Shown here: positions 3,262 to 62,184 of the stretch, in pieces
Layout: every line of letters begins with the position of its first letter
Position numbering within the stretch: position 1 is the first letter of the stretch
Program-made: the position numbers and the translations under genes
Notes under the pieces: generated by a model
What the model saw: only the letters and a program-made list of their open reading frames with translations
The model's database searches: none
Told to the model about the DNA's origin: nothing
From: a virus
Taxonomy: Duplodnaviria; Caudoviricetes
Direction: 5' to 3' (one strand)
Length of the DNA: 63,999 nt
Virus record (IMG/VR): IMGVR_UViG_3300030101_003107
Location: 1 to 63,999 of that record

Positions 3262-3739
3262 AAGCCACGAATATACTACACGAGCATTCAGCAGTATCAG
3301 CTTGAAGTAAAACTTCTTCAATTTTACCTGAAACTGTTGTAGCTGATTTAACAGTACCTAACGTTACACCAGCGTCTATACAGAAAAAATTAAAAGTATC
3401 AAAATACATGCTTTGTCCAGCTAGTAGTTTATAGTTAACTGATAAGTTATTAGTTGCGTCTTGAATAGTTAAAATAACAAAGTTACTAGAGTCATTATTA
3501 GTTATACGCATATACTTAAAATCAGTATGCTTAATTTGACCAGCTGACTCTGTTGGAGAACCAGCGTGATCTATTTTAAAAACTTGAGTAGCTCCAGTAT
3601 GTAATATTCCTAACGTTTGTTGAAACACATGGTTTACACCTGTTATTTCAAGATCATCTGAAGAGCCTGTTGTGTCAAAGCTAAAAGTTGTACCGTCTAT
3701 TGTTACACTTTCTTTTATACCTAATGTTAATGTTGCCAT
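3254..3739 (-). CDS. Small beta-rich structural protein (distant paralog of 4211 and 4636 ORFs)
   Basis: MATLT start; KYMRITN...KLLAGQSMYF pattern. Confidence 0.65.
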   Translation of the reverse strand: MATLTLGIKESVTIDGTTFSFDTTGSSDDLEITGVNHVFQQTLGILHTGATQVFKIDHAGSPTESAGQIKHTDFKYMRITNNDSSNFVILTIQDATNNLSVNYKLLAGQSMYFDTFNFFCIDAGVTLGTVKSATTVSGKIEEVLLQADTAECSCSIFVAYA

Positions 3740-15300: not shown

Positions 15301-16765
15301 AATAATTATATACTTGTTCTACTTCTTTTGGTTTTGTAGCAACACTAGTTACTGATGCAGCAGGACCACCTAGCAAAGCACCTATACCAGCATCATGTAT
15401 AACATTTGTAAAAAACTCTTTACCACCTATCTCGTCGTCAAATATAAACATATCTCCAAGCTGCTGCAAAGTTTTATTCGCTCCTTCTGTAGCACCTTCT
15501 GTTACAAAACCACCACCAAACTTTGAAATAGCGTTAGTAGTATAACTTCTAATATAGTCTGTAACAGCTTTTTCGCTAGCACCTACTCTTCTTAATCCTA
15601 CTACATCTCTAAATAATCTAGCTCCCAAATATTCTGTACCCCACTCAAACAAACCATCTGTACTACTAGTTAAATATAACTCTCCAATAGTAGCGTCTGG
15701 TCTTTCTTTTAAGTTTTGTTCAAAACTACTACCAGCTGCAGAAGTACCTAAAGCTATACTACCATACATTGGAAAACCAATTGCTAAAGCCAAAGAAGGT
15801 ATGTTAGATAAAGCTTGCTCAGAAGCTACTTTAGCAGCGTTAGGATAATCACCTTTTTTTATAAGATCAATATACGTCATGGTGTTGCCGTCTTCATCTC
15901 TAACGTTAGTCATGTGACTTCTTAGTTTAGCTGAAGTGTATTTTAGCTGTTCTGTAGGTATATCTGGATATGTTCTTTGTACAATCTCTAGTGGTAAACC
16001 TGTTGATTGAGCTATTAAAGGTTTTAAGCCATAATTGTTTACAAAATCAACCATACCAGCGGTTAAATCTAGTGTTACTGCTTTTACACCAGACAAATAA
16101 GGAATTAAAGCTTTAGGAATGTTTGAGTTTGCTGATAGTTTAATTTTTTCGGCTTCTGCTATAGCGTCTTGAAGATCATAACCTGTTTTTTTATAAATCT
16201 CTTTACGCTCGTTTAAATCTAGTTGTCTAGCTTCAAGATCTTTGCCAGCTTCAGCTGCTTTAAAAAAATTATCTCTAAGCGTATAATATTCGTCTAAAGT
16301 TTCTTGAGGAAAGTTTGCAGGAAGTTTTTTATTTTCATCTAATTGCAAAGCTATGTTTTGATTATAAAAACCATCAACAACATCTTTAGCATTATTTAAT
16401 TTTTCAGTGTATTCTTCTATTGTTTTGCTTAGCTCTCTTTGTTGAACTTCTAAAGGCACTATATCAACTTCAGGTAAAGTTACGCCTTTTATAGTATCGT
16501 CTTCTACTCTTGCTCCGGGCACAACGTCAAAACCTGAAGCTTGAACTTCTGCTATAGTTTCAGGATTATTTGTGTAAGTAGGAAACTCCGATAAAGATTT
16601 TGCCGAACTGGATGCCGTACTTTCTGGCTCCGCAGGGGCATCCACTTTCTGGGGAGCTTGTTCTTTTTTTGTTTCGACGTAGTTTGTAATAAAGCCTTTT
16701 ATTTCATCATCAGACTTTCCAGCATCGATTAGTTTTTGAATTTCTAATTCTAACTCTTCGTTCAT
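9386..16765 (-). CDS. Giant virion/ejection polyvalent protein (zincin + sigma70-like + HAD + helical C-terminus + CCCH finger)
   Basis: Third gene of the post-tail ejection trio; HEFGH at aa 729; sigma region-2-like GIFDLIQKYNPESGVPLAAYI; HAD FDFDETL..LTAR..FVDD; terminal C-x9-C-x10-C-x2-H. Confidence 0.85.
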   Translation of the reverse strand: MNEELELEIQKLIDAGKSDDEIKGFITNYVETKKEQAPQKVDAPAEPESTASSSAKSLSEFPTYTNNPETIAEVQASGFDVVPGARVEDDTIKGVTLPEVDIVPLEVQQRELSKTIEEYTEKLNNAKDVVDGFYNQNIALQLDENKKLPANFPQETLDEYYTLRDNFFKAAEAGKDLEARQLDLNERKEIYKKTGYDLQDAIAEAEKIKLSANSNIPKALIPYLSGVKAVTLDLTAGMVDFVNNYGLKPLIAQSTGLPLEIVQRTYPDIPTEQLKYTSAKLRSHMTNVRDEDGNTMTYIDLIKKGDYPNAAKVASEQALSNIPSLALAIGFPMYGSIALGTSAAGSSFEQNLKERPDATIGELYLTSSTDGLFEWGTEYLGARLFRDVVGLRRVGASEKAVTDYIRSYTTNAISKFGGGFVTEGATEGANKTLQQLGDMFIFDDEIGGKEFFTNVIHDAGIGALLGGPAASVTSVATKPKEVEQVYNYLAPQQFKNIQFDIATQIDAKVKQLETAKESEKAGIQEEIKDLNNAQVANKKSLYRTFNSLSNSQLKTYAQNLDAIHKQKNKLRRAKTDKDKELILDKINKRNQDNFNLIESAQNSRREKLFENVSLQAEALKQQGVNVDIRKGNSNDFVNWRRDDEQASFDIGAIQAMDEIINDPSSTQEEIAEARKEKRSQSEQFRKREEILKGESTRYGAIRQDGKGGLEIFINQESELRDGVMTTLTHEFGHALLFATLQGNQAARKAFGDALLESFDENNIAIEGTDFKRRLDQYTEAEGKSEEVFTLAAEAVQNGDIKFNDNLFSRLKDVVKRFTKNTTGLEYKFNTNQDVFNFFRDYVESVESGNINKDLIKSAAKGIKGDILPTDIKPGDVQQFSKEASDRVQQIYQDQGVGGAMSIIDQFAPIVNRLVQRRSEAPNFDRQLLTDEINTGERGIFDLIQKYNPESGVPLAAYINKFLPARAIEASRRVLGEEFTDDVTEARGVAAEETVEQQPERKTKDIVLADRLNIQNEVTTEVNEQETKFSTLSNFKSVPNAARNTIGKLLGISPDKIKSKANLTAAEVASAQRWFKANAALVIQALPQGFDSSGKATGVPKTVLETLYNKRDSRAKTKAGLRTQVKRTNIKDSELLELIDIIDGKPTRNRNTSARVIALADLLGKVITNQEIRRQNPELTSISDGMANYMFSKEDTDLNKMLRQENKAWKSVVAAATQDVQPIDIVNNDADLQNYRDFVKNTIAPNFPIEMLTVGTFAGAGANGRKRNFAFTSKQDLLSSVEGAKFAPSDPDITAAVSSVGKYGKSTGKTVAEKLKDSEYHESSIIGAKKVWLKIQEIMQAQPETIPYFATMFASTSQNMGHFARVISTLEFTNTLNEKNVEEHTLPASDFAKFLFNRALQGNLELYIDGAFENYAQGSLPLSYDKKLKGEINGVKFNFVQAPPLEYHLDILLGLKSKWIRYFNPLVNANDGGINPNYLINARGETIAEEFGLGVDVSLHSDASTISTQQNLLYQFLNGDITASQAKNNLDTFLQTRNKIKPNAEIKQNSSISQNISSVRPVLAYSKDSKGMSTFDFDETLIIDGENFVTATKDGETVKIPSDKWPIDGPKLAADGYEFDFSDFANVRGGKEGPLLQKMKNQIKKYGPSNVFVLTARMQEAAEPIHKWLKSQGINIPLKNITGLGKSEGDAKAAWFLEKYQEGYNDMYFVDDALPNVEAVKHVFDQLDVKGKSVQARINFSKDMSSEFNKMIERTKGVAAEKIFSRVVGQKRGKNIGRYRFFVPPSAEDFAGLLYDFYGKGKQGDADMEFMKKALLDPFGRADREMSEARMSILDDYKLLRKEIPNVKKRLGKLIEKDTGFTFDNAIRVYLFDKAGFEVPGISKRDLNYLKNVVNTDQDLKTFADALSIVSKRDKGWIEPSENWSVESIASDLENIVNKIGRKQYLAEFIENKNIIFSTENMNKIEAIYGSRFRSALEDSLYRMENGTNRSSGRTYGQAWTNWVNGSVGAIMFFNARSAVLQTLSTVNFINFDDNNIFKAGKAFANQKQYWSDFSTLFNSDFLKARRAGLQINVNEAELANAVAGAQNKAKAALAYLLKKGFLPTQIADSFAIASGGSTFYRNRVETYTKQGMNKKAAEEKAFLDFQEIAQETQQSARPDRISQQQASPLGRLILAFANTPMQYNRLIKKASRDLINNRGDWRSNVSRILYYGAIQNVIFSALQSAIFALSFDDEEDDALDQRATRIANSMLDTILRGSGVAGAAVATIKNTIMRFISESERKSRADYGQVVVEAVQVSPPMGSKARKVYSALNAYKFNREIMGSMDTFDYNNPIWDATAKVTTAATNVPLDRLFRKTDNIREALNQENTAMQRAFLTLGWSAWDLQVGERVVVNKGKENQYVRYLDLKRQAQQEAKDELKEQKKKEKKQNKNQCSFIKRDSSRCKNMVNKPKTRCYAHD

Positions 16766-19161: not shown

Positions 19162-22100
19162 CTATTTGCTACTTTCAACAGCGTTTAGCGCTGCAGCAAA
19201 TAACTCAGATTTATTTTCAAAATCATTATTTCTCCAAACACATCTTGCATAGTAGCCTTTAACTCCAGAGTGTTCAACAGGATTTTGTGTTAATACAAGC
19301 AATATTGAGCTTATATCAACGTTATAATCATCTACAATAGGGCCTAATGCTTCAAATAGCTCAGGTGTAGATACATTTGTTGTTATTGACGTAGAATCAA
19401 AACTTACCACGCTTCCAAGATTTACAAATTGACCTACAGTTTCTGATGGAGGAATAACAGTTGGATTATCACCTACGGTAGTACGCATTACGCGCACGTT
19501 AACACCTTCTTGAATAACAGCCATGTTTATAATTCCTAAATCAAATGATATTGTAAAACCTAGGCTACCATCACTATTTTCTACAATGCTTGTTGGTATA
19601 CCTAAAGGAGCTATATATTTTTGAAAATCTTCACTGTCTGTAGATAAAGTATCACCTTGTTTATCGTCTATATTTACATGCATTAAATTATTATGCCATT
19701 TGTTTTCTTTATTCTTAAAGTTTATTGACATACCCTGCTCAAGATCTGTTGTAATTCTACTTATCCACCATCCATCTTTGTTTAAATTAGTAGATAACAC
19801 GCCGTCGTTATTGTTAGATATAATTCTAGCTTGAGTACCTTCATAGTTAGTATAAGTAAAGTCTTTTACAGTGCCAGGCATTTCGTTATAAACTAAAGCA
19901 ATTCTTGGCTCTTGACTACTAGGCTCTGATTGAAAATAACCTTCATAAAAGCCGTATTTAGCTACTACGTTGTCATGATGATAATGCTCGCTGCTAATAC
20001 TAAAATATTGATTTTTTAAACTATATCCTTGAGCATCTTTATAGTATGTTCTAAAAGAAGTCCAAGCGTTTAAGCTTTCGTCCCAAGCAATAGTCAAATA
20101 GCCAAAAATTTCATCTTCTATATCTGTAAGATCAAAGTTTCTACAAGATAAAAGATATTCGTTTTTATCAATATCATAACTTCCAAATATATAACTATTT
20201 TGATCTCTAGCGTCTGATAGTTGGTTTTTAAAATAAGAGTCCATACCTTGATCAGATATTATAGTCATACCATCTTTTGATAATCTTATAACAACACCAC
20301 GTTTGGCATCGGTAAAGTAAGATCTAAAACCATATTGAGCAAAAGACTCAGGATTATTTGATATACCATATTCACCGTCAAAAGCAACAGATTGACCTAA
20401 AACTTTATCAGTAGCTAATAAATCAGGATTACCATCAGCTTTAAATATTGCATCTTTTTGAGAAAGAACTTTTAAAACTTTATCTTCACAAAGAACTATT
20501 AAATCATTTGCTCTAGAGTATAGTTTTTGTATAAATCCGTGATCTGGATTAAATCTTTTAGTTATACCTAATGCTTCTATAAACTGATTAGTCTCGTTAA
20601 ATCCACTATAAGAATTATATATACCTGAAAATATTAAACCTTCACCAACCTTAATTTCAGCATAATCTTCATATATACTAGATGCCTTAACACCTTTTTG
20701 TATTCTAGCTCCATTAAAAGAGTTTTTAACAGTAGATATTTCTATACCGTTTCCAAAGCAGAAACAATTATAATAAGGTAAAGCTATAGGTGTAACTACA
20801 TCGTTTACTAAACTAAAGTTTGATAAATGCGTGTGTCTTTTTACAAGAATAGTATCACTATTAACAACGCTTTCTGCTACGGTAACGTATACGTGCTCTC
20901 CAACATTTAATCTTCCGCCTCTATGCTCTTGTATTTTTAAGACTAGTTGATCTGGATTAGCAGGAACAGTTATGGTTACAGGTTGACTTAAAGTTATTGT
21001 AGTATACAAAGCATCATTAATATTATGTCTACCAACATTAGTTGATACAGATGTTACTGTAATTGGAGTAAGATCAATATCGTCAAGAATACTAACCCCA
21101 CCATCGCCATCATTATCACTTGTATATAGTAGAGGAAAAGTAGTATCACCTACTTGAACAACGCTATTTAAACCTAAAGCGCCGCCTGGGCCTGGTATTA
21201 AAGCAGTATAATAATAAGCTTCTACCATACGACCAACTTTAATAAACTGTTCGTCAGTTTCATCGTCTAATACTATAGGATATGCTTGAGAAGCTTCATA
21301 ATATAAGTCTGTATCATAATTAGGTTTTGGCAATGTTTCAAATACACCTTGTGTTTTAGCTGTGTTCGGGCCAGGTAACGGGCCTACGTCATTGTTCACT
21401 ACTAATGGTCTATCAGTTTTTACATAAACAAAAAACTTACCTTCAAAAACGTTTGGATCATCGTCTAAAGCATCAATTAAAGCTTCAGGCACTTCATTTC
21501 TTATTCTTTGAACTTCATATTCAAGATTAAGATTGTCTGACTCATAGTTGTTTGTTACATTAGACAAATCAGGATCTGGTTGTCCAGATTTTCTATGAGC
21601 TCTTTTTTGTATTAGTATATCGCCTTCTTGAACTTTGTTTCTATGATCAGAACTAAATATTAAAACACTATTAGTTTTTTCTGTTAAGCTACTTGCTTGA
21701 GCTTCAACAGAAGCGTCATCTTCACCGTCAACATTTATAAAATGTCTAATTTCTTCTAATGGTAAAACATTATAATCTAAAGAAGTATCTTTAACAAAAA
21801 ATTTATATGACTTAGCCCAAGTTGGATGTGGGTTTTTAACTATTACAGATATTCTTTGTGTTTTTTTAGAGTCTTCTGGACTTACTTTTATAATAGCTTG
21901 TCTATTAGTTAAAACAGGTGTTTCTCTACCAAACTCATCTCTATAAACAATACCAACTTGATAAGATCTATAAGATTTAATAGACTCCTGTGGTACGCCA
22001 AAGTTAGGGTTTGTTCCAGCGAAAGCTTCTTCAAAAACTTCAATAGCTCCATCGTCTGAGCTAGCACCTATAATTATTGGGTTACCATCAGGTCCAAGTA

Positions 22101-25100
22101 TTTCATTTATTTCTTGATTAACATAGGTGTAAAGTCCTACTTCAAGATTAACTTTTATATCAGAAGAAGATATAATTTCGTTATTAAAATCAAGTACTGT
22201 TTCTACTAAGTTGTAGTCTTTTAAGTAATTACCATAAACAACTCTATTAGCAGTAACTTCTTGTGCTTTAGCTGATTTTGGCACAGAGTCAAAAGGTCTT
22301 AATATTTGATTAGGATCTATTGTTAAACCTAAAGTATTAGCATTAAAAGGATGTAAGCCTGTATAAGATCCGTTTGCTGGTAAATTATATTCACCATCTC
22401 TAAAATCATATTTTTTTACAGCATATATATTATTTGCTTCTTCACTTTTAACTACCAACTCTACAGCTTTTACATCATGTGGTAAATTTTTTGGTGTCCA
22501 GTCTATTAATCTTAAATCTTTTATTTCATTAATTAAAGATATGTAATAGTTTGGCCAATCTATTTTTTGATTTAAAGTTCTCCAAATAACTGTAGTAAAA
22601 GGCGCAAAGCCAGAGTATTCGTTGTCTTCGTATTGATACCTGTAAGAAAATCTTAACATAGCTTCTCGTAAAGACTTTTCATCAGCTAATCTGCCTGCGC
22701 TGCTACCTTCATATTGAGAAGCTAAACTAACAGACCAAACTTGAGGAAGAGGTGGACCATAAAATTTTGGATTACCTTGAGAGTCAACTAGCAAACCATC
22801 GCGGCCCCAATTTTGATTAGTAGTCCAATAAGGTGATCTTCTGCCTTTGTAATCTTTAGGTAACATTGCTGCGTTTTTAGTACTGTCACCTTCTCCAATA
22901 ATAATAGGGCCTTCATCGCCTGGTCTTACATACTTATTGCTTAAATCAACTCTTAACGATGGATCTAAAGGATCTTTAGCGTTGTTTTCATCTATTTGAA
23001 TAGTAATAATATATTGGCTAATAAAATGCTCTGTAGAGAAAAAACTTGGCGGTAAGTCTACTACTGTACCGTCATCTAATACTATTTCTTCTCCACCAGG
23101 ATCAGTGCCATCAATTATAGTTTGATCAACTAACCCATCATTTAAAAATATAAATTTATCTTTTAAATCAGTATAAACATTACCAAGGTTATCAGTGAAA
23201 CCTACATTGTTAGGAACACCATTTATAACTGCACCAGCTCCTGCTGGGCCTTCAGGCCGCATGTTTACATGCTCTATTTTTGTTATTGTAGCTTTTACTA
23301 AATCAGCAAACCCGTCGTGTCTTCTGCCTGCAAACCGTGTACTATTTAAAAAATTAGCTCCTAGTGGATTTGCAGGGCTATTGAAACTAAGCTCTTGAGT
23401 ATCTCCAAAGTCTTGCCCACCTTGATTGTCTATTGTCCAAAGATCTTCATCTACAAAACCTCCTGTTTCTTCTAAAACCGAAGCAGGTGTGAAAAAGCTA
23501 TTGTCGTCTTCATCTGTATAATAAACATCAGTATATCTACCAACTGCGTTACTTCTTCTAGTATTACCTTGACCTTCTAATACAATTTTGTCACCAACAC
23601 TAAATCCATGAGGTTGAACTACAAATCTTCCAGGCCCTGTAGGTCTATATAAATTATTTTCGTTTAAATCAATTCTACCATTATGCACAAAATCAGCCAT
23701 TGGACCATCGTCAGGATCTCCACCTAAACCCCAATATTCGCTAATAGCAGCTAAATTTTGCGAAGGGCCTGATATATTAGCTTGTGAAAAAAGACCACCT
23801 AAATGATAAGCTTTAGCTATACCGTGCTGATTTGCATAAATAGGTGGGGCAACATCACCATCAAGAAGATACCCTCCAGGCATTTGATTTGTGTAGTGTA
23901 TAACATCACCTTCTGATCCAGCGTTACCACCAAAAGAACTGCCAGGACTAAAAGATACTAGCACGTTTTCATTTACAGAGTTAGCACCTACACCTCTAGT
24001 ACCACCTGCGCCTGAATAATTTTCCCAATAAAACGGCTCTAACGCTTGATTAAAGACACCATCATCTTCAGTAATTCCTGAAGCCATACGCATTGGACCA
24101 ACTGGAATAATATGTCCATCAGTTGGATCATTAAAAAAACCAAAAAGTGGTCCAAGCTCTTGGTAAGAGTCCATACCAGCGTTTAAATAATTTTTAAACA
24201 ATGGGTAAGGCGCTGATGGTTGTGAGTTTGCTTGTACATTTTCAGCTATAGCAGTTGGAAAAACTAAAGACTCTATAGTATATCCGCGTGGATCGTCTTG
24301 ATTAAAAATGTTAGCTGGAACACCAAAAAATCCATTGCCAGCTCCCATTGGATCTAGCGCGCCAGTTCCTGGGGCAGCAGTACCGTAAATACTTCCTCTA
24401 GATGCTTTTACATAAGCGCCCCAAGATAAAGTGTCAGGAATATCAAGAGTCATGCTGTTTCTAAAGTCCATAGCTTGGTTGCCATTTACATCAGCATACG
24501 GAATAAAAGATCTGAAGTTATAATAAGTATCAGGGCCTAAGCCTACTAACGGCTCACCCAGTCCATCGTTAGTAATTAATCCACCGGCTTCGTTATAAAA
24601 ACCAGCTTCGTTTAAAAATGCAACTGCAAACTGTAATGTTTTACCACTTGCGTGGTTTGGATGTATAGGAAAAGGATGCGTCATAACACCTTTAGTTGGA
24701 CCAACTGTTTTAACGTCTGAGTCGCCAACCACAGCACCCACATCAGTTAACACTTTTAAATGCTCTTCTGGATTTGGTCTTATAACAGTACAGTGAGACT
24801 CTATAGTTCCACCTAGCCCTGTATTTATAGCATTGTTTGCTATAACAGCGTTATCGTGATACCCGTTAAACTGCCAACCAGGAACACCTTGAAAGCCTAA
24901 ATTGTTATCAGAGTTTTCTCTTAATAATCTAGTATGAAAAAGTCTTCTATCTGTAAGCCAGTCTGGATATACCGACTGTTGATCAGATAAAGTACCTACT
25001 TTAGATCTATTTATTTGTATTTTTTTAGGTTCGTTTTTATTATCTGTAAAAAATATTAAACCATCAAATACATTTATACCTGTTATATATCTTGAGTAAT

Positions 25101-26709
25101 CAAAATCTAATATTCTTTTAGATACAAAAGCAAAGAAAAAATTATCCTCATCAAGAGCTATGTCATCAGGAATAACTACATTATCTGCAAATCGATTAAA
25201 ATCATCTTTTATGTATACTCTGTAGTTAACTCTATCAACATAGTCAACATAAAAAGCATCTATTAAAGTATTTATACCAGCACCTTCAGTTAAAGAATTA
25301 GAAACAGCAAAATCAGTGCCTACTATTGTGTCATACTGAAGAATACGCATGTCCTCTCTAATGTCTAAGTCACGCATATTCAAACCATCGTCAGGAAGTT
25401 GTATGTATGTTCCTAATTCATTCATGGGCTGGCCTATGAAAACAGCTGGAGTTCTTATTTCATAAACATCGTTAAAAACTAAATCCATGTCTCCATGGCC
25501 ATTGTTTTCTTCTGATATTCGCTGCATAGCTCTATTAGGCTCATACTCGTATATAGCGTCAGCTCTAACAACAATGCCTCTAGCGCCAAAAGATTCTGGA
25601 TCAAGATCTTCTATAGCATCAATACCACCGCTAAAAAATTGTCGAGTATCTTCTCTAAATTGATCTATATGAGTAAAAGGATCGTGTTCACCCGTCAAAT
25701 TATCTGTTAAGTGATTCCATGTTCCAGGAATTGCAGTAATTAAAGCTTGATCTACAGTACCTCTATTAGGACCTGTTAACTCAATAAGATTACCATCTTC
25801 TCCAGCGGTAGGTTGAATTATTGTTACAGAGCTTCCGTCTAATTCAACGTTAACTCCTATGCTACTTAGAGCATTATAAAAGTTTGTTGCTTTTCCTTCT
25901 GCTGAAGCTGCTGAAGCTACATTTATAGTTACTAGCTCTCCTGCTTCATCAAAAATATGTCCATTAGGAAATGATATGTTAGTATAACTATAAGGAAAAA
26001 GCGGATTAGCTTGTGCTTCAGTTGTAAAAGCGCCATAAACAATAGTTATTTGACTAAAACCGCTAGATGTTGCGTTGTTTAACGTAAACCTCATTTGAGG
26101 ACATCCACCAATTGTTCCTGCGTCCCAAGGTCCTGAGCCATCAATTTGATAATCTGGATTACCTATTGCGGCTTCCCACCAGTTGCTGCTAAGTTGACTA
26201 CCAAAATCACTTGGACCTACTGGTCCTTCGTTTATCCAGCCAGGTTCGTTTGATTCAATATTTTCGTTATGTAATCCATATCTACGCGCAACTGCGTAAT
26301 CATAAAGAGGGCTTATGCCTACGTAATTATTAAAATTAATTGTAAATCTTGCTCTTTCACCAAAGCCTTCACCTTCTAGTCTAAAGGCATTAACATAAGC
26401 TGAGTCTTTAACGAAATGATAAGCATAATCATTTGTTCTATCTACAGCTGTACCTACTACTCTAGGTTGAGTAAAACCTACTCTTCTAGGGCCAAAAGTG
26501 TTTAGCTCTCCATCTCCTTGATGTCTCCATCTATCTTGAGCAATAACTTTAGTATTTGCTCTAACAGTTTCTAACGAACCTTCGTTTCCTTCTGAAGAAC
26601 TACTAACCCGTATGTTTATAGCTTCACGATATAAACCTTGACCTACTAGCCTCTCATCAAGGTCAAGATTCATTCCACCTTTAATAAAAGTTCTTTTTAA
26701 TTCAGCCAT
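19162..26709 (-). CDS. Tail stabilization / nozzle (muzzle-type) protein with large insertions
   Basis: GGMNLDLDERL, FFTDNKNEPKKI, RFSYRYQYEDNEYS, NRVVYGNY, RSYQVGIVYRDEFGRETPVL, YGISNNPESFA, FKNKENKW: motifs recalled for the P22-gp10-like tail protein of Bacteroidota podoviruses and crAss-like phages. Confidence 0.8.
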   Translation of the reverse strand: MAELKRTFIKGGMNLDLDERLVGQGLYREAINIRVSSSSEGNEGSLETVRANTKVIAQDRWRHQGDGELNTFGPRRVGFTQPRVVGTAVDRTNDYAYHFVKDSAYVNAFRLEGEGFGERARFTINFNNYVGISPLYDYAVARRYGLHNENIESNEPGWINEGPVGPSDFGSQLSSNWWEAAIGNPDYQIDGSGPWDAGTIGGCPQMRFTLNNATSSGFSQITIVYGAFTTEAQANPLFPYSYTNISFPNGHIFDEAGELVTINVASAASAEGKATNFYNALSSIGVNVELDGSSVTIIQPTAGEDGNLIELTGPNRGTVDQALITAIPGTWNHLTDNLTGEHDPFTHIDQFREDTRQFFSGGIDAIEDLDPESFGARGIVVRADAIYEYEPNRAMQRISEENNGHGDMDLVFNDVYEIRTPAVFIGQPMNELGTYIQLPDDGLNMRDLDIREDMRILQYDTIVGTDFAVSNSLTEGAGINTLIDAFYVDYVDRVNYRVYIKDDFNRFADNVVIPDDIALDEDNFFFAFVSKRILDFDYSRYITGINVFDGLIFFTDNKNEPKKIQINRSKVGTLSDQQSVYPDWLTDRRLFHTRLLRENSDNNLGFQGVPGWQFNGYHDNAVIANNAINTGLGGTIESHCTVIRPNPEEHLKVLTDVGAVVGDSDVKTVGPTKGVMTHPFPIHPNHASGKTLQFAVAFLNEAGFYNEAGGLITNDGLGEPLVGLGPDTYYNFRSFIPYADVNGNQAMDFRNSMTLDIPDTLSWGAYVKASRGSIYGTAAPGTGALDPMGAGNGFFGVPANIFNQDDPRGYTIESLVFPTAIAENVQANSQPSAPYPLFKNYLNAGMDSYQELGPLFGFFNDPTDGHIIPVGPMRMASGITEDDGVFNQALEPFYWENYSGAGGTRGVGANSVNENVLVSFSPGSSFGGNAGSEGDVIHYTNQMPGGYLLDGDVAPPIYANQHGIAKAYHLGGLFSQANISGPSQNLAAISEYWGLGGDPDDGPMADFVHNGRIDLNENNLYRPTGPGRFVVQPHGFSVGDKIVLEGQGNTRRSNAVGRYTDVYYTDEDDNSFFTPASVLEETGGFVDEDLWTIDNQGGQDFGDTQELSFNSPANPLGANFLNSTRFAGRRHDGFADLVKATITKIEHVNMRPEGPAGAGAVINGVPNNVGFTDNLGNVYTDLKDKFIFLNDGLVDQTIIDGTDPGGEEIVLDDGTVVDLPPSFFSTEHFISQYIITIQIDENNAKDPLDPSLRVDLSNKYVRPGDEGPIIIGEGDSTKNAAMLPKDYKGRRSPYWTTNQNWGRDGLLVDSQGNPKFYGPPLPQVWSVSLASQYEGSSAGRLADEKSLREAMLRFSYRYQYEDNEYSGFAPFTTVIWRTLNQKIDWPNYYISLINEIKDLRLIDWTPKNLPHDVKAVELVVKSEEANNIYAVKKYDFRDGEYNLPANGSYTGLHPFNANTLGLTIDPNQILRPFDSVPKSAKAQEVTANRVVYGNYLKDYNLVETVLDFNNEIISSSDIKVNLEVGLYTYVNQEINEILGPDGNPIIIGASSDDGAIEVFEEAFAGTNPNFGVPQESIKSYRSYQVGIVYRDEFGRETPVLTNRQAIIKVSPEDSKKTQRISVIVKNPHPTWAKSYKFFVKDTSLDYNVLPLEEIRHFINVDGEDDASVEAQASSLTEKTNSVLIFSSDHRNKVQEGDILIQKRAHRKSGQPDPDLSNVTNNYESDNLNLEYEVQRIRNEVPEALIDALDDDPNVFEGKFFVYVKTDRPLVVNNDVGPLPGPNTAKTQGVFETLPKPNYDTDLYYEASQAYPIVLDDETDEQFIKVGRMVEAYYYTALIPGPGGALGLNSVVQVGDTTFPLLYTSDNDGDGGVSILDDIDLTPITVTSVSTNVGRHNINDALYTTITLSQPVTITVPANPDQLVLKIQEHRGGRLNVGEHVYVTVAESVVNSDTILVKRHTHLSNFSLVNDVVTPIALPYYNCFCFGNGIEISTVKNSFNGARIQKGVKASSIYEDYAEIKVGEGLIFSGIYNSYSGFNETNQFIEALGITKRFNPDHGFIQKLYSRANDLIVLCEDKVLKVLSQKDAIFKADGNPDLLATDKVLGQSVAFDGEYGISNNPESFAQYGFRSYFTDAKRGVVIRLSKDGMTIISDQGMDSYFKNQLSDARDQNSYIFGSYDIDKNEYLLSCRNFDLTDIEDEIFGYLTIAWDESLNAWTSFRTYYKDAQGYSLKNQYFSISSEHYHHDNVVAKYGFYEGYFQSEPSSQEPRIALVYNEMPGTVKDFTYTNYEGTQARIISNNNDGVLSTNLNKDGWWISRITTDLEQGMSINFKNKENKWHNNLMHVNIDDKQGDTLSTDSEDFQKYIAPLGIPTSIVENSDGSLGFTISFDLGIINMAVIQEGVNVRVMRTTVGDNPTVIPPSETVGQFVNLGSVVSFDSTSITTNVSTPELFEALGPIVDDYNVDISSILLVLTQNPVEHSGVKGYYARCVWRNNDFENKSELFAAALNAVESSK

Positions 26710-42050: not shown

Positions 42051-42308
42051 TTAATCTACTAGTACAATATCACCTGCTTTGATAACAAAATAAAGCTTAC
42101 CTTCAAATTCTACTCCGTGACCAGCGTGTTTATCATACCAGACAACATCACCATCTTTTATAAATTCTATTAAATTACCAGTTGATATAACTTTACCTTT
42201 AGAATATCTAACGTCTTCGTCAGCATCTTCTTTAATAATTAAGCCAGCAACTTTCTTTTCTGTTTGTTTTATCTTATCGATAACTACATAATAATTAACT
42301 GCCTTCAT
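42051..42308 (-). CDS. groES: Co-chaperonin GroES
   Basis: KVAGLII mobile loop, KGKVISTG, IKDGDVVWY, GDIV; adjacent to groEL. Confidence 0.9.
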   Translation of the reverse strand: MKAVNYYVVIDKIKQTEKKVAGLIIKEDADEDVRYSKGKVISTGNLIEFIKDGDVVWYDKHAGHGVEFEGKLYFVIKAGDIVLVD

Positions 42309-43863
42309 TGATACGTATATTTGAAATTACACAATCAGCAGAAATTATTGTCGATGCTACTGAAGCAGCGTTAGTAAGTGCTGTTTTAGTAACAAGCACA
42401 GGGTCTATGATACCTTCAGATACCATGTCAACAGTTTTTCCAGTTACAACGTTAATGCCTTCACCTTCTTTAGTTGGTAAGTCTGTGTCTGTGGATATAC
42501 CTGCATTATCAAGTATTGTAGCCATAGGCGATATAATAGCGTTAGCTACCACTTGTTCACCGACCGTGTCGGTCGAAATTTTTTGAGATGCGTTAAAGAG
42601 GGCGATGCCGCCTCCTGGCACTATACCTTCTTTCAAAGCAGCTTTAACTGCGTACACAGCATCTTCAACACGATCTCTTTTTTCTTTTAACTCTACTTTA
42701 GAGTTAGCACCTACTTTAACTATAGCTACACTACCAGATAATATAGCAAGCCTGTCTTCTAGCTTCTTCTTCATAAAGCCGTTTTTCTCGTCAGCCACTA
42801 GCTTTGCAACATGATCAATACGTTCTTCTATATCTGAAGTTATCTCTTCTAACGTTATAACAGTATTTTTTTCATCAGTCTTAACAAATTCAGCTTCACC
42901 TAAATGTTCTGGAGTTATAGTATCAAGATCGTCGCCTAAGTCTTCATTAAATAATGTACAGCCAGTTAGTATGGCTACATCTTCACATGTGTCTTTTTTA
43001 GTAGGACCAAAACCAGGCAAGTCAATTATGTTAACTTTAATATTGCCTTTTACTTTGTTCATCATAAGCGCAGACTTAACTTGATCGGCTACTGGCGCTA
43101 TAATTAATAAAGATCTATTATTTTTAATAACATGCTCTAATACTTTTTGTATTTTACGTATGTTAGGTATTTCTGACATACACATTAATATTAGTGGATT
43201 ATCTAAATCACAGCATTGCTTGTCGGTATTAGTTACAAAGTTAGTGGAAATTAAGCCACAATCAAACTGAACACCGTCAACAGTCTCTACGTATGTTTCT
43301 TCTGTATCTGATGTTTCCATAAGTACAACACCGTCTTTACCTACAGTCTTATAAGCTTCTGCTATAATTCTACCTAGCTCTTGATCGTTATTACAGCTAA
43401 TACTAGCTACGTGATCTAACATATCATCATTAACTTCTATTTTAATAGAGTCAAGATATTTGATAATATTAGCTACAGCAGTGTCTATACCTTGCTTAAC
43501 ATCTCTAACATTATTAGTTTGTAATACTTTGTAGACTTCTTGAAGCAAGCTTTCAGCCAAGACGGTAGCCGTTGTGGTACCGTCACCCGCTTCCTTGACT
43601 GTTTTGCTTGCAGCTTCTTTAATGAGAGTGGCGCCAATGTTCTCTACGGGATCTAATAGTGTTACAGATTGCGCGACCGTAACACCATCTTTTGTGATCA
43701 CTGGCTTTCCTCGGCTATCTTCATAGATTACGCACTTGCCAGAAGCGCCGAGAGTTGATTTTACTGCCGATGCTAACTTATTAACACCAGCGATTATTCG
43801 GTTTTTGGCATTATCGCCAAAATTAAGCTCTTTTACGAGCTCACTCGGTAAATTATATTCCAT
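42295..43863 (-). CDS. groEL: Chaperonin GroEL
   Basis: ITKDGVTVA, AGDGTTTATVLA, GVQFDCG, KDRVEDA-like KRDRVEDA, GIVPGGG, GIIDP. Confidence 0.97.
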   Translation of the reverse strand: MEYNLPSELVKELNFGDNAKNRIIAGVNKLASAVKSTLGASGKCVIYEDSRGKPVITKDGVTVAQSVTLLDPVENIGATLIKEAASKTVKEAGDGTTTATVLAESLLQEVYKVLQTNNVRDVKQGIDTAVANIIKYLDSIKIEVNDDMLDHVASISCNNDQELGRIIAEAYKTVGKDGVVLMETSDTEETYVETVDGVQFDCGLISTNFVTNTDKQCCDLDNPLILMCMSEIPNIRKIQKVLEHVIKNNRSLLIIAPVADQVKSALMMNKVKGNIKVNIIDLPGFGPTKKDTCEDVAILTGCTLFNEDLGDDLDTITPEHLGEAEFVKTDEKNTVITLEEITSDIEERIDHVAKLVADEKNGFMKKKLEDRLAILSGSVAIVKVGANSKVELKEKRDRVEDAVYAVKAALKEGIVPGGGIALFNASQKISTDTVGEQVVANAIISPMATILDNAGISTDTDLPTKEGEGINVVTGKTVDMVSEGIIDPVLVTKTALTNAASVASTIISADCVISNIRINEGS

Positions 43864-47433: not shown

Positions 47434-47913
47434 ATGATAAAAAATAAATTTATAGCGTCAGCAGTAGTAGCTACTCTTGCGCTAACATCTTGCGAAAAAA
47501 CTGACTATGATGTTCAGTTTGACAGAGATACTCATGTAAAAATCATGAGCGATAACAGTGTAAGCACTTACGCAGTGTCAACTTGTACTGGTAACGATAC
47601 TAGTTTTGTAGTTGATTTTGGTGTTGCTATGTGTATAAATGTAGCAAACCTGCCTGGTATTGACGACGTTCGCTACGATGAGTATGAGTTCTATGCTATG
47701 CTTGATGGCAGAAAAGTAAAAGGTTTTCAAAACCTAAAAGACCAAGTTAGTAATCTAGCGCAAGGTATAATTGAAGGAAATATTAACATGCAACTTTCAG
47801 GTCATGACGACTTAGCTGTGTACTTATTACACGAAAATATGTATAAAGCTCAGTTCTTTGTAGAGAACGGTGATGGTCAAATCTTTGAGTTACAACTAAA
47901 AGAAGTTTACTAA
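47434..47913 (+). CDS. Lipoprotein
   Basis: MIKNKFIASAVVATLALTS|C lipobox followed by EKTDYD. Confidence 0.8.
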   Translation: MIKNKFIASAVVATLALTSCEKTDYDVQFDRDTHVKIMSDNSVSTYAVSTCTGNDTSFVVDFGVAMCINVANLPGIDDVRYDEYEFYAMLDGRKVKGFQNLKDQVSNLAQGIIEGNINMQLSGHDDLAVYLLHENMYKAQFFVENGDGQIFELQLKEVY

Positions 47914-48290
47914 TGAAAAAAATAACACTATCAGTTGCTCTACTATTAGGTAGTTTAGCGGCTAAAGCACAGACAGAATATATAGATATTACTAGTAAAA
48001 AACCGTTTGGCAGAAGTGAGATGGTGCTTTACAATGATGACACTAATTATTACGATTTAGAATACTTTTATTTAAGTAGATTTACTAAAAACTACCACTG
48101 GGTAAAGTATACTGACGCTAATAAAATTATTTTATCACTAAATGACGACAAAGGTGATAAGCGAGAAATATGTACTAAGCAAGATACTTTTAAAGTTTAC
48201 TGTCAAGTATATGATTCTTTTGCACAGCAATTGAAAATAAATGTATCAACTAAAGTATTTCAAGTATGGATTTCAAAACCTTTAAAATAA
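47913..48290 (+). CDS. Exported protein
   Basis: Signal peptide MKKITLSVALLLGSLAAKA|Q. Confidence 0.8.
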   Translation: MKKITLSVALLLGSLAAKAQTEYIDITSKKPFGRSEMVLYNDDTNYYDLEYFYLSRFTKNYHWVKYTDANKIILSLNDDKGDKREICTKQDTFKVYCQVYDSFAQQLKINVSTKVFQVWISKPLK

Positions 48291-48295
48291 TAATT

Positions 48296-48397
48296 ATGAG
48301 AAAATTTTCACACACAGATATAGTAATAGTAGCTGTTCCGGCTATACTTATTGCTTTAATAGTATTTAACATTATTACTGTTGGTATTCAATTTTAA
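48296..48397 (+). CDS. 33-aa single-TM peptide (not in ORF track)
   Basis: MRKFSHTDIVIVAVPAILIALIVFNIITVGIQF. Confidence 0.6.
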   Translation: MRKFSHTDIVIVAVPAILIALIVFNIITVGIQF

Positions 48398-48398
48398 T

Positions 48399-48428
48399 AC
48401 AAATTAAATACGATTACTATTGGATAAT
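48399..48428 (+). promoter_or_regulatory. Early promoter motif, copy 5
   Basis: ACAAATTAAATACGA-ttactat-TGGATAAT. Confidence 0.85.
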
Positions 48429-48452
48429 ATATATGACAAAAGCTTATTAAAT

Positions 48453-48668
48453 ATGAATAAATATTGTAAATGTGGTGAGCCCGTACACCCAGTTAGACAA
48501 AAATACGGGTACAAAACATGTGTTAAATGTAGTAATGTAGAGCGTGTCGCATCGGCACCTATTACTAATCATAAAACAGGTAACACAATACAAATAGTAT
48601 CACAGGCAATGTCTGTTGCTATACACAAGGCGAGTAGGCGTAAAGGCTACGGTACTTGTCTTAGATAA
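48453..48668 (+). CDS. C4 zinc-finger protein (TraR/DksA-finger-like)
   Basis: CKCGEPVHPVRQKYGYKTCVKC; start moved to ATG 48453. Confidence 0.65.
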   Translation: MNKYCKCGEPVHPVRQKYGYKTCVKCSNVERVASAPITNHKTGNTIQIVSQAMSVAIHKASRRKGYGTCLR

Positions 48669-48671
48669 TAT

Positions 48672-48745
48672 ACGAGGAGTGAAGTTGGAAGTTAGCGCAT
48701 AAATCTGCAAGACAGTAGCCCACTAACTCAAACACTTCACCTCGT
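48672..48745 (+). ncRNA. Structured element A (long hairpin)
   Basis: ACGAG/CTCGT, GTGAAGT/ACTTCAC and AGTTAG/CTAACT nested pairings, followed by TTT. Confidence 0.6.
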
Positions 48746-48752
48746 TTTATAT

Positions 48753-48841
48753 ACGAGCGTGGCGCGTGAGACGTGTTCAGTAAAATGGAACTAACAGGTG
48801 AGGCCCCAGCCTGACTGTTCTTACTCACTTGGCCACCTCGT
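48753..48841 (+). ncRNA. Structured element B
   Basis: ACGAG/CTCGT, GTGGC/GCCAC, GTGAG/CTCAC, AACAG/CTGTT, AGGC/GCCT; same ends as element A. Confidence 0.6.
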
Positions 48842-48850
48842 TTTACAATT

Positions 48851-48921
48851 GACTGGTAGTGTTAGTCTCACGTAGCATCTATCGCGAGAAGCTAAAGACA
48901 TTGCTCGCAGGCTAGTCACCA
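48851..48921 (+). ncRNA. Structured element C with acceptor-like stem and ACCA 3' end
   Basis: GACTGGT/GCTAGTC 7-bp stem + A + CCA; internal TCTCaCG/CGcGAGA helix. Confidence 0.5.
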
Positions 48922-48923
48922 AA

Positions 48924-48973
48924 CAGCTAGGTATTGGCAATACAGGTTTGAGGTTCGATTCCTCACTAGCTAC
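48924..48973 (+). ncRNA. D-armless tRNA-like element D
   Basis: AGCTAG/CTAGCT stem, short GTATTGGCAATAC hairpin, AGGTT variable-like segment, canonical T-arm TGAGG-TTCGATT-CCTCA. Confidence 0.7.
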
Positions 48974-48988
48974 TAAAATTAAATAACT

Positions 48989-49174
48989 ATGAATATAATA
49001 ACAGTATTAGATTACGAAAGCGGTAAAGTATGGCAGTATAAAGTAGATGCAGTCGAGTATGTTCAGGTCGAAACCATTGAAGAAATACTTCAAGAACAAG
49101 GACATAAGCTAGAAGACATCGACTATATGATACACGCAGACGAAACTATTAACAAAATTAAAATTGAATTATGA
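48989..49174 (+). CDS. Hypothetical protein
   Basis: ORF with A-rich leader. Confidence 0.7.
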   Translation: MNIITVLDYESGKVWQYKVDAVEYVQVETIEEILQEQGHKLEDIDYMIHADETINKIKIEL

Positions 49175-49237
49175 GCAGATTAAAACCATTAACTAAGCCA
49201 AAAGGTATATTTTTGGTAACAAACCCAGGAAAATAAT

Positions 49238-49777
49238 ATGGAATACATGTCAACAGAAATTAGAAGTGCGCGCGAAGCAATGACTGTCTTTAAGATACTA
49301 GGTATCAAAGACGTCACTACAGATCGCCAACGTAAAAACGGTACACAAGTATTTGAGTTACCAATACAACAAATGTATCAAAGCTTAATACCAAAACCTT
49401 TACGTTTTGCTACTTACAAAGCAGGTTATGTTAGAAATGTAAGTGAGTACAACTCAAGTCCTTACCAAATTAACAAAACGAAAAAACGACCAGCAGGCAA
49501 AGGTTATCACTTTGAAACGGTTGAGCGTATACTTATTCCAAATTGGGAAGAGCGATTGATATACTTAGCTAAGTTTATTATCAAGAACTACTATAAAAAG
49601 CCTACATACTTAATTAACGACTATGTTATTAAGTGTTTGAAAGAAGCTTATTTTAGAGACTATAACAATAATCCTAACAATAGACTACCATTTGGCGATA
49701 TTGTTCACCCAGACTCTTCGCCAGTAGATGATATACAAGTAATTATTAACGGGCATAGGTATAACCTTACAAATTAA
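49238..49777 (+). CDS. Hypothetical protein
   Basis: 179-aa ORF; function not recognised. Confidence 0.7.
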   Translation: MEYMSTEIRSAREAMTVFKILGIKDVTTDRQRKNGTQVFELPIQQMYQSLIPKPLRFATYKAGYVRNVSEYNSSPYQINKTKKRPAGKGYHFETVERILIPNWEERLIYLAKFIIKNYYKKPTYLINDYVIKCLKEAYFRDYNNNPNNRLPFGDIVHPDSSPVDDIQVIINGHRYNLTN

Positions 49778-49798
49778 ATACGAATACTAACGGATAAT
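49769..49798 (+). promoter_or_regulatory. Early promoter motif, copy 6
   Basis: ACAAATTAAATACGA-atactaa-CGGATAAT. Confidence 0.85.
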
Positions 49799-49824
49799 AT
49801 TATAAACCAATTAAATAAACCATT

Positions 49825-50196
49825 ATGACAAAAACAGAATTACAAGCAAAGATAGAAGCTTTGCAAACAGCTCTTGAAACTAAAGCGCAAGAGCAAAACG
49901 CATATCAAGGTCAAATTGATACACTTAAAAAACAACTAGAAGACTTAAACAAACCAAAGCTTACTGGTCTTCAGTTCGATAAGTTACATGAAGCTATTGA
50001 AGAAGGTATTGGTAGTTACGATTTTAGTGATACTGATTGTTATAGTATTGACTACGGTATTGACTACGATGGCAGAGTACATTGCGAATCATTTGACTTT
50101 GAAAACGCTGATGACTTAGCTCATGAAATATACGAACAAGTAGCACGTTTATTTGCTGAAGCAGATGAAGATAATAACCAAGAAAACCAAGATTAA
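49825..50196 (+). CDS. Coiled-coil + acidic hypothetical protein
   Basis: N-terminal heptads, acidic C-terminal half. Confidence 0.7.
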   Translation: MTKTELQAKIEALQTALETKAQEQNAYQGQIDTLKKQLEDLNKPKLTGLQFDKLHEAIEEGIGSYDFSDTDCYSIDYGIDYDGRVHCESFDFENADDLAHEIYEQVARLFAEADEDNNQENQD

Positions 50197-61992: not shown

Positions 61993-62184
61993 ATGACTGA
62001 ATTACAAAGAATGTATAATGAGATGTTAGTTACCTTAGAAAAAGGTATTGAAGATCTTGAAAAGTTTGAAGATGGAAATATGTCTGCTGGAACTAGGGTT
62101 CGCAAGACAATGCAAACAACTAAAGAGTTAGCCCAACAAATACGGGTTACAGTTCAAGAACAAAAAAATGCTGTTGTAGCATAA
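61993..62184 (+). CDS. Histone-H1-like (Hc1-type) small protein
   Basis: EKFEDGNMSAGTRVRK...KELAQQIR matches my recollection of Bacteroidota Hc1-like proteins. Confidence 0.7.
   Translation: MTELQRMYNEMLVTLEKGIEDLEKFEDGNMSAGTRVRKTMQTTKELAQQIRVTVQEQKNAVVA

Follow-up and report, generated by a model that had tools for sequence, protein, structure and literature searches.

The intergenic island of 320 nucleotides (nt) at positions 48669-48988 of the IMG/VR virus record IMGVR_UViG_3300030101_003107, in which no open reading frame (ORF) is present, holds two adjacent structured units, unit A (48672..48748, + strand) and unit B (48753..48844, + strand), which belong to a family of modular elements with a sequence-invariant double-stranded handle and exchangeable hairpin modules. 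The record was analyzed in full, is called the window in the following, comprises 63,999 bp and was estimated to be 99% complete. As judged by sequence comparison, the family, its structure, strand and modularity, the selection acting on it and its genomic context are established. The structure is very probably that of a selected + strand RNA and the units are rather probably discrete RNAs, while the chances are about even for the complete chain of reasoning, namely that A and B are processed, stable and modular phage small RNAs. To our knowledge, scaffolds of constant sequence that exchange hairpin modules, likewise constant, in a combinatorial manner have not been described previously, and the passages returned by a full-text literature search contained no description of the B-unit family.

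The initial annotation of the island had described two tandem units with identical ends and unrelated interiors, which was confirmed here: ATATACGAG starts at 48668 and at 48749, the 12-mer CACCTCGTTTTA is located at 48738-48749 and 48834-48845, and the units abut with TA common to both. Within the record, exact copies of CACCTCGTTTTA are present only at these two places, and ATATACGAG occurs exactly three times, i.e., at the two units and at 25546 (- strand). With mismatches allowed, these short words were found near chance level (21 found as compared to 15.4 expected, and 10 as compared to 5.4), and the significance thus rests on the paired arrangement and on the relatives; the paired arrangement of A and B was confirmed to be much stronger than chance. 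Common to both units is the frame ACGAG-N-GUG...CAC-CUCG-UUUU. Unit A, a non-B member of the frame superfamily, reads ACGAG-GA-GUGAAGU...ACUUCAC-CUCGUUUU around module M9, and unit B, a B-type scaffold RNA, is the type member of the family. The latter consists of the 5' handle (48753-48770, with P1 ACGAG, bulged C, P2 GUGGC, loop GC and P3 GUGAG), the junction ACGUGU (48771-48776), arm 1 with module M5 (about 48777-48818) followed by the junction UCUUA, the 3' handle CUCAC-UUG-GCCAC-CUCG (48824-48840) and the U tail (48841-48844), all on the + strand. The long bulged stem proposed earlier for each unit was also recovered by folding, at z about -2.6: A (-19.7 kcal/mol, z -2.63) and B (-33.3 kcal/mol, z -2.58) both fold as ACGAG/CUCGU, bulge and GUG.../...CAC around their unrelated interiors, and in each case 1 of 200 shuffles was as good. 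Moreover, the island is indeed non-coding, located downstream of the fifth copy of a promoter-like box and richer in GC than its surroundings (0.445-0.465 over 48600-48899 as compared to 0.25-0.31 just upstream at 48100-48599, in 200-nt windows). Unit A was found to be identical in three further metagenome loci; its interior matches only locus L003, and the interior of B matches other loci.

Related loci, given here with L numbers, were gathered via the 179-aa neighbor gene (26 loci), via the zinc-ribbon gene directly 5' of the island (80 loci) and by scanning viral contigs, metagenomes and genomes for DNA patterns. The search with the 179-aa gene is independent of the RNA, and 19 of its 26 loci possess a B unit with identical handle, the others showing a different frame (L016 and L018), no island at this position (L005 and L017) or tRNA-Arg(UCU) only (three loci). 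Pooling of all loci resulted in 156 matches to the 3' handle, 143 of them with a 5' handle, corresponding to 87 distinct units with 73 distinct cores. Positions 1-5 and 7-18 of the 5' handle carry the majority base in 84-87 of the 87 units, whereas position 6, the bulge, varies (44 units with C, 32 with T and 10 with A). Pairwise comparison of 43 distinct ORF-unit combinations (903 pairs) showed differences of 0.27% at the 17 positions of the 5' handle, 63.8% at the bulged base and 27.8% at the same-amino-acid codons of the zinc-ribbon ORF. A codon change of 27.8% as compared to 0.27% in the handle means that there was ample time for neutral change, and thus that both handle strands are constrained in sequence; these comparisons indicate that the handle is held constant in sequence and not merely in pairing.

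The B family is abundant in marine metagenomes, as seen from 100 stretches with its handle in one metagenome scan and part-matches in runs from 14 studies, and was found only in one clade of uncultured marine podophages whose hosts are probably Bacteroidota. All 28 true viral matches to the 3' handle occur at one site per contig. When viral contigs were searched for the frame pattern with a gap of 25-55 nt, seven matches were obtained, four of which belong to the family (two new frames and two already seen), two are probably chance matches in coding DNA and one is uncertain. The exact 20-mer at the A/B junction had no match in viral contigs. A search of 185,579 species genomes for the 21-nt 3' handle yielded a single contig of 63,395 bp, assigned to a metagenome-assembled genome (MAG) of the Sphingobacteriales (L059). 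Its synteny (zinc-ribbon ORF, S2, B, S5, promoter) is as in this phage family, and it is most likely a phage genome binned into a bacterial MAG, the lineage of which might hint at the phage host. No match to the island (blastn), to the zinc-ribbon protein or to the 179-aa neighbor was found in GenBank phages; the lineage is uncultured. Two distant exact 3' handles (L119 and L144) were observed on one metagenome contig of 81,217 bp; this contig exceeds the genomes of the clade of about 64 kb and may result from wrap-around or concatemer assembly.

A search for covariation in related phages, suggested by the initial annotation, revealed compensatory changes in the closing helix of arm 2, in P1 and P2 of the frame and in module stems. 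The arm-2 helix is paired to 97.8% across 20 distinct sequences with double changes at three of seven pairs, no shuffle out of 500 attained its covariation score, and the pairing was lost when the partner strand was shifted. All non-Watson-Crick combinations at the six closing pairs are G.U on the + strand, and the optional seventh pair accounts for three unpaired cells. For 12 different frames, RNAalifold recovered the bulge flanked by P1 and P2 (5 bp each), and five of these ten pairs are changed on both sides. At pair 5 of P2, the B type has C-G, L180 has G-C and three units have U.G. Module stems covary as well (UACGGUG/CACCGUA vs. UACAGUG/CACUGUA, and CUAG/CUAG vs. CCAG/CUGG). In distant relatives, covariation extends to two tRNA-like elements that accompany B, S5 and S6: the S6 T stem reads either GGUGG/CCACC or AGCGG/CCGCU, and at acceptor pair 2-71 of S5 G-C is replaced by A-U.

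The interior of the B units is modular. From ACGAG to CCUCG the units span 63-192 nt, with cores ranging from 28 to 157 nt, and the core lengths (28, 33, 37, 38, 40, 41 and so on) lack 3-nt periodicity, which indicates that the cores are non-coding. Each core is laid out as junction A-Y-GUGU-A, arm 1 and AUCUU(A/G); in about 20 distinct cores a further arm comes next, with ACACRG/CYGUGU as closing helix and GUA behind it. The one or two arms bear hairpin modules at their tips; the repertoire comprises about 20 small modules, 15-45 nt in length, and they move among arms 1 and 2 of the B scaffold, the separate hairpin S2 and the tRNA-like scaffolds S5 and S6. M5, the interior of B, forms arm 1 in the window and in L015, L027 and L040, and arm 2 in L044, L077, L081, L128, L145 and L160. 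M9, the interior of A, is found in L003 within a full B handle and with another flanking helix, and GUAUGAGGUUCUUAGCCCUCC caps three different helices (UGUG/CACA, GUCUAUG/CAUAGAC and AGAAUG/CAUUCU). Modules are nested within modules in L023 and L125, and an RNA-library contig that joins 48669 to 48751 skips exactly unit A. Despite this mobility, divergence is low: when mismatches of up to 20% were permitted in matching, the end of S5 (3') and five of the interior modules showed differences at 0-1.3% of positions, as compared to 23-30% at synonymous-type codons of the adjacent ORF in the same phages. M5 and M2 were found nowhere else in 2.9 million viral contigs.

Furthermore, the genomic context relates the units to tRNA genes. 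In 91 distinct islands the element order (S6)-(S1)-(S2)-B-(S4)-(S5) is fixed, with each element optional. A real tRNA-Arg starts 6-7 nt after the CCUCG of B in L014 and L036, and tRNA-Ser and tRNA-Asp begin 58 and 43 nt after B in L074 and L147, respectively. There is no room for a promoter between B and such a tRNA, which implies that the tRNA is made by transcription through B. RNase P cleaves pre-tRNAs at the 5' end of the tRNA, and this cleavage would set the 3' end of B. In the window, the island ends with a 48-nt tRNA-like RNA, S5-short (48925..48972, + strand), composed of the acceptor stem AGCUAG/CUAGCU, U8-A9, the hairpin GUAUUGGCAAUAC, a T arm and discriminator A. Only the acceptor stem (6 bp and one G.A), U8-A9 and the T arm (UGAGG-UUCGAUU-CCUCA, containing GGUUCGAUUCC) are parts of a tRNA and no CCA is encoded; ARAGORN called no tRNA in the window, and there was no Rfam tRNA match. 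The middle of S5, a 13-nt hairpin in the window, carries variable modules in 35 distinct relatives. S5 occupies the slot of tRNA-Arg(UCU) in more distant relatives, and L014 has its real tRNA-Arg at this position with the same ACTAAAATTAAATAA downstream.

The survey of loci by zinc-ribbon identity is informative for the history of the array. At 77-97% identity (34 loci), B is present in 25, other frames in four and no island in four, one locus being truncated; at 61-66% (17 loci with the ORF end), nine have tRNA-Arg(UCU) right behind the ORF and four an S5-like element and other hairpins, the remainder showing the T arm only (two) or being truncated (two); and at 46-57% none of 27 loci has an island. 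It follows from this gradient that the array appears to have grown at a tRNA locus, i.e., at an ancestral tRNA-Arg(UCU) locus behind the zinc-ribbon gene.

Two observations concern the tRNA-like scaffolds themselves. S6 is a tRNA-like RNA of 143-212 nt (L002 at 3076-3287, also L022, L044, L117, L130, L145, L159 and L025) with a 7-bp acceptor stem GCCCAAG/CUUGGGC, the covarying T arm, a conserved CAAGG/CCUUG helix and variable inserts. This layout is tmRNA-like, ARAGORN and Rfam make no call, and S6 is found even in the distant relative L025. Moreover, the motif CUGACGAG recurs just 5' of the T arm of S5, and in the distant islands L224, L226 and L227 it forms the loop of the hairpin GUUACUGACGAGUAAC. 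It fits the CUGANGA box of hammerhead ribozymes, but neither GAAA nor helix III is in place and there was no Rfam match, and the hammerhead idea was rejected.

Following this, we propose that the array (S6 tRNA-like)-(S1)-(S2)-B-(S4)-(S5 tRNA-like or real tRNA) would be a polycistronic, tRNA-operon-like unit of the early region. The frame ACGAG-N-GUGG...CCAC-CUCG-UUUU closes each unit, and the B type adds the helix GUGAG/CUCAC and the junction AYGUGUA/AUCUUA as the source of one or two arms. An early promoter box would drive the array, with transcription reading through the U tails, and RNase P and the 3' tRNA-processing enzymes of the host would subsequently free the hairpin units by cleavage at the tRNAs or tRNA-like elements. 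The invariant double-stranded handle and the U tail would then protect the ends and would be read sequence-specifically by a protein, which may be a processing nuclease, an RNA-binding protein or an RNA polymerase. The handle would in this way take part in processing, in the binding of proteins and in forming the 3' end. In the last step, the modules would act as payload, that is, they would bind host or phage factors sequence-specifically as ligands or decoys, and they would be exchanged by recombination at shared boundaries among co-infecting phages. With regard to the initial annotation, the idea of an RNA family with a common handle and a variable payload was strongly supported by the invariant handle in 87 copies, the module swapping and the covariation, and its second part, discrete processed RNAs, is suggested only by the abutting tRNAs or tRNA-like genes.

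Several points weigh against the reading of A and B as processed, stable small RNAs. The 3' handle was searched for as an exact string in the metagenome scan and in one viral scan, so that its invariance there is by construction, and the 5' handle, although not a search pattern, was located with a regular expression that allowed up to two mismatches. The B type shows no compensatory change in its handle, and the case for its pairing thus comes from complementarity, from folding and from the wider family of frames. The - strand of B folds equally well (-32.1 kcal/mol) and that of A even better (-28.0 kcal/mol, z -4.02), which means that folding energy alone leaves the strand open; among the 87 units the + strand is more stable in 57, with a modest difference of the means (-32.3 vs. 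-30.7 kcal/mol). Identical modules could stem from very recent exchange instead of purifying selection. The island is absent in the close relatives L005, L017, L207, L208, L215 and L216, and hence is dispensable. Family scans of the window detected no Ro60, reverse transcriptase (RT), integrase, ToxN or RNA ligase as a partner protein. The metatranscriptome contigs from four RNA libraries are short and of low depth, among them X16 with the end of the zinc-ribbon ORF and unit A, and X18, an 86-nt contig corresponding to 48759-48844; the contig ends coincide with points of strain divergence, the libraries can contain DNA, and these contigs are uninformative on expression or unit ends. Finally, a decoy role of the payload for host factors is conjectural and doubtful.

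The strongest rival is a cis-acting mRNA element, namely an intrinsic terminator or attenuator formed by the GC-rich lower stem and U4-7, and/or a T7-type RNase III site with a 3'-stabilizing hairpin for the zinc-ribbon mRNA, in which the apex of the stem would be free space accommodating any self-folding insert. It would account for a conserved lower stem with a variable top, and in many islands the first unit indeed begins 2-3 nt after the stop codon. Furthermore, at least four U residues follow 86 of the 87 units, a new promoter box is present after the island in L011, L012, L016, L018 and L059, and P1-P3 form an interrupted duplex of about 17 bp (15 bp plus the bulge and a 2x3 loop) that is a plausible RNase III substrate. 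However, A and B were not called in a simple scan with a terminator consensus, the hairpins are 63-192 nt long and contain junctions, and A, B and further RNAs stand in tandem with tRNAs 6-7 nt past the U tail, which require read-through and imply inefficient termination; in many islands, S6, S1 or S2 is located between the ORF and B. Free space would moreover be expected to drift, yet the modules are conserved at the level given above and recur on other scaffolds, and a stem selected for pairing only should show compensatory changes, of which there are none in 87 B units. T7-type RNase III sites also leave the invariant sequence on both strands and the conserved modules unexplained. The cis-acting element is accordingly regarded as unlikely, if worth keeping in mind.

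An improbable alternative is a DNA-level element, i.e., miniature palindromic mobile or recombination cassettes resembling miniature inverted-repeat transposable elements (MITEs), repetitive extragenic palindromes (REPs) or attC sites, with the unit ends as recombination sites. The imperfect terminal inverted repeats around variable interiors, the presence or absence of whole units at shared boundaries of 7-9 nt (the 48669-48751 contig drops exactly unit A) and the nesting of modules in L023 and L125 fit this idea, and the Erf annealase and PDDEXK exonuclease of the phage could drive short-homology exchange. Contrarily, the window encodes no transposase or integrase, copies are confined to one island and one site per contig, the element order is fixed, the non-Watson-Crick pairs of arm 2 are G.U on one strand only as for RNA, and the tRNA-like scaffolds and tRNA neighbors suggest RNA biology. 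A MITE- or REP-like palindrome was rejected since the exact 3' ends occur only at two adjacent units, and at one site per contig in the 28 viral matches. The attC consensus for R''/R' is RYYYAAC/GTTRRRY; it is absent from the unit ends, which read ACGAG...CTCGTTTTA, and an integron attC was likewise rejected.

Antisense small RNAs, the interiors of which would pair with host or phage mRNAs while the handle serves as a chaperone-binding or terminator module, are a highly improbable explanation. The architecture is similar to that of small RNAs derived from 3' untranslated regions (a structured 5' part, then a terminator-like 3' hairpin and U tail, behind a coding gene), and a pairing function would lead to sequence conservation of modules. 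However, the best match of the island to the rest of the phage (24.3 bits as compared to 22.3-30.2 bits in 20 shuffles) revealed neither complementarity nor similarity above chance. The islands of the window and of L023 were also searched on both strands against 400 genomes of the phylum Bacteroidota and 350 genomes of the order of the L059 MAG, and the matches were at chance level (21/401 at E ≤ 0.1 and 23/351 at E ≤ 0.05, with the phage-like contig counted in each), in a search that does not extend to unsampled hosts or to seeds of 7-10 nt. The absence of M5 and M2 elsewhere in the viral contigs also argues against pairing, as does the fact that the modules are tightly folded themselves, with GNRA- and UUCG-type loops. 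The base-pairing role that had been considered in the annotation was hence not supported in the phage or in the 750 sampled Bacteroidota genomes. Neither was an antitoxin-like role: the units are not identical repeats, their interiors are unrelated and no toxin gene is present, as no ToxN/AbiQ-type family was detected in Pfam and PHROG scans, the PADLOC library not being searched. A CRISPR mini-array or RNA anti-CRISPR was rejected because the unit ends are inverted complements and the Bacteroidota genomes gave no multi-copy or strong matches, although the host may be unsampled, and a retron msr-msd was dismissed in view of the lack of an RT family among the window ORFs.

Returning to processed small RNAs as the preferred reading, a tentative extension would be a combinatorial RNA display, in which a few nuclease-resistant scaffolds, namely one Y-RNA-like bulged stem and two tRNA-like RNAs, all freed from a single early transcript by tRNA-processing enzymes of the host, would present about 20 sequence-invariant hairpin aptamers, each trapping a different host factor such as an RNA-sensing or tRNA-cleaving defense protein. 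This would be the RNA counterpart of protein anti-defense islands, diversified by cassette exchange between co-infecting phages, and in all its parts we consider it possible rather than probable. Small stable phage RNAs are often located beside tRNA genes, and their role has been obscure since the work on T4 in the 1970s. The present family provides a clean natural experiment, as the invariant handle must be read by something sequence-specific, and the finite set of modules, conserved to the base yet freely recombined, together with the presence/absence variation seen among close relatives, may help to test the roles of RNAs in tRNA clusters. Moreover, the scaffolds could serve as natural carriers for the expression of RNA aptamers in Bacteroidota.

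Comparison with known families supported the novelty of the units. The Rfam search proposed earlier was performed, and no Rfam 15 family matched A and B or the islands of relatives: for positions 47500-50000 of the window at E ≤ 10 only four chance-level matches to snoRNA and miRNA families were obtained (16-20 bits as compared to 48-100 bits needed), 17 related loci at the gathering threshold yielded only two real tRNAs, and the L002 and L023 islands at E ≤ 10 nothing relevant. In T7, the R0.3-R1.3 sites are bulged RNase III hairpins between early podophage genes that stay at the 3' ends of the processed RNAs. The units described here resemble them as bulged hairpins of a common form downstream of phage-specific promoters, but their lower stem is sequence-invariant, their top is a two- or three-way junction with modules of up to 157 nt, and they are arrayed with tRNA-like RNAs. 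Species 1 and 2 of the T4 tRNA cluster (rnaC and rnaD) are small and stable, have no assigned function and are matured by the tRNA-processing enzymes of the host; by description, they are similar as small RNAs within a phage tRNA array that are co-transcribed with tRNAs, and we know of no modular shuffling described for them. The tRNA-microRNA-encoded RNAs (TMERs) of murine herpesvirus 68 (MHV-68) consist of a tRNA-like element and hairpins, are transcribed by RNA polymerase III and give rise to microRNAs when host tRNA enzymes release the hairpins. The joining of a viral tRNA-like element to stem-loops is common to both systems, whereas the units described here have a bacterial host, the opposite polarity in most islands (hairpin before tRNA-like element) and no known effector pathway. 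The phage RNA decoys pseudo-ToxI and Racr are small structured RNAs that mimic host repeats and neutralize defense. They share with A and B the position in an accessory early region and, as proposed for A and B, are units with defined processing ends; unlike them, A and B have no host counterpart in the 750 sampled genomes, are not identical direct repeats and are not accompanied by a toxin gene. GOLLD and ROOL RNAs often occur in phages or prophages beside tRNA genes, are rich in tetraloop-type hairpins, have optional domains and, as single RNAs of about 600-800 nt, assemble into cages. Like the present family, they are structured and non-coding, and no function is known for them (10.1101/2024.12.08.627333). 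In contrast to them, B units measure 63-192 nt, and no Rfam match was obtained. Y RNA and YrlA are, together with the T4 tRNA-cluster RNAs, the GOLLD and ROOL RNAs and the TMERs, the closest analogues in architecture: their ends pair in a long, bulged and conserved stem around a variable or modular interior, a run of U is present at the 3' end, and they are associated with phages and with tRNA-like modules (PMC4201824). The present units differ in that the tRNA-like domains are separate RNAs and that the window has no Ro60/TROVE gene: no TROVE domain was found in 77 of 78 ORFs of at least 45 aa, the unscanned one (48661-48828, - strand) overlapping A and B. Rfam gave no match for Y RNA or YrlA either, the Ro-binding helix motif itself not being compared.

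The phage carrying the island encodes a large terminase (TerL), a portal protein, two giant virion proteins, GroEL/GroES and a sigma factor, as well as a primase-helicase, a class II ribonucleotide reductase, a ligase, Erf and a PDDEXK exonuclease. The nearest TerL (64.7%) belongs to an uncultured Caudoviricetes sp. record, followed by those of the Flavobacterium 'elemo' podophages and of Cellulophaga phages at less than 60%. The C-terminus of a 603-aa protein (5065-6876, - strand) is formed by a sorting domain for type IX secretion, a hallmark of Bacteroidota. Because of the nearest TerLs (elemo and Cellulophaga) and this sorting domain, the host is most likely a marine member of the Bacteroidota.

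The + strand genes from about 45.3 to 62 kb constitute the early region. Its promoter-like box, AAATACGA-N8-GGATAATATA, is present in seven + strand copies between 45334 and 51293 as compared to 0.10 expected by chance. Copy 5 (AAATACGATTACTATTGGATAATATA; 48406..48431, + strand) lies upstream of the zinc-ribbon gene and the RNA island and presumably starts the transcription unit that holds both, its promoter function being predicted; the next copy is located at 49776. The 5' boundary of the units, (A/T)ATACGAG (48668-48676), and the promoter box (48406-48413) have ATACGA in common, and in L011, L012 and L016 the box after the island, behind S5, has ACGAG in its spacer (AAATACGACACGAGTCGGATAATA). 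This overlap may be a trace of recombination between promoter and RNA cassette, or chance. Mimicry of the promoter in a 6S-like manner was considered and rejected as unsupported, since only ATACGA is common to unit and box. The spacing of the box is at odds with sigma-70 promoters and with sigma-A promoters of Bacteroidota. Two copies read AAATACGACTCAAGTT... and AAATACGACTTAAACT..., and AATACGACTCA in the former is also part of the T7 promoter core. Family scans found no single-subunit RNA polymerase family among the window proteins. It could be speculated that a giant virion-region protein of 2459 aa (9386-16765, - strand), which has no family match, is a divergent virion RNA polymerase reading the early boxes.

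Directly 5' of the island, the conserved 71-aa ORF (48453..48668, + strand) encodes the four-cysteine zinc-ribbon protein with the C-terminus ...RRKGYGTCLR*. In the alignment of relatives its mean column identity is 89%, and 63 of the 65 B units with sufficient upstream sequence are located up to 750 nt downstream of this ORF. The protein matches no Pfam or PHROG family; its nearest named atlas cluster is zf-dskA_traR (0.88), which is a lead only. Between unit B and S5-short, a third hairpin (48850..48918, + strand) with the closing stem UGACUGGU/GCUAGUCA has few relatives, in L167 (100% identity), L114 (95%) and L148 (89%), and the stretch 48845-48980 folds at a z of only -1.07. The island is closed by a 61-aa ORF (48989..49174, + strand), and no promoter box is present between the two. 

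Other features of the window are a second giant virion-region protein of 2515 aa (19162-26709, - strand) with a crAss muzzle-like N-terminus (PF25731, E 9.5e-10; PHROG 14478), the pair of GroES (85 aa, Cpn10) and GroEL (522 aa, Cpn60) at 42051-43863 (- strand), a histone H1-like Hc1 protein of 63 aa (61993-62184, + strand; E 2e-15) and a PAP2 phosphatase-like protein (18-557, - strand). Lastly, a larger RNA is present about 900 nt further downstream of the zinc-ribbon gene in L005 (4923-5097) and L017 (4916-5136), in which the inner B core (GCGUGAGAUGUGU...UCUUACUCACUUGG) is enclosed by another outer stem (ACGAGG...CCUCGUUUU) and accompanied by extra arms.

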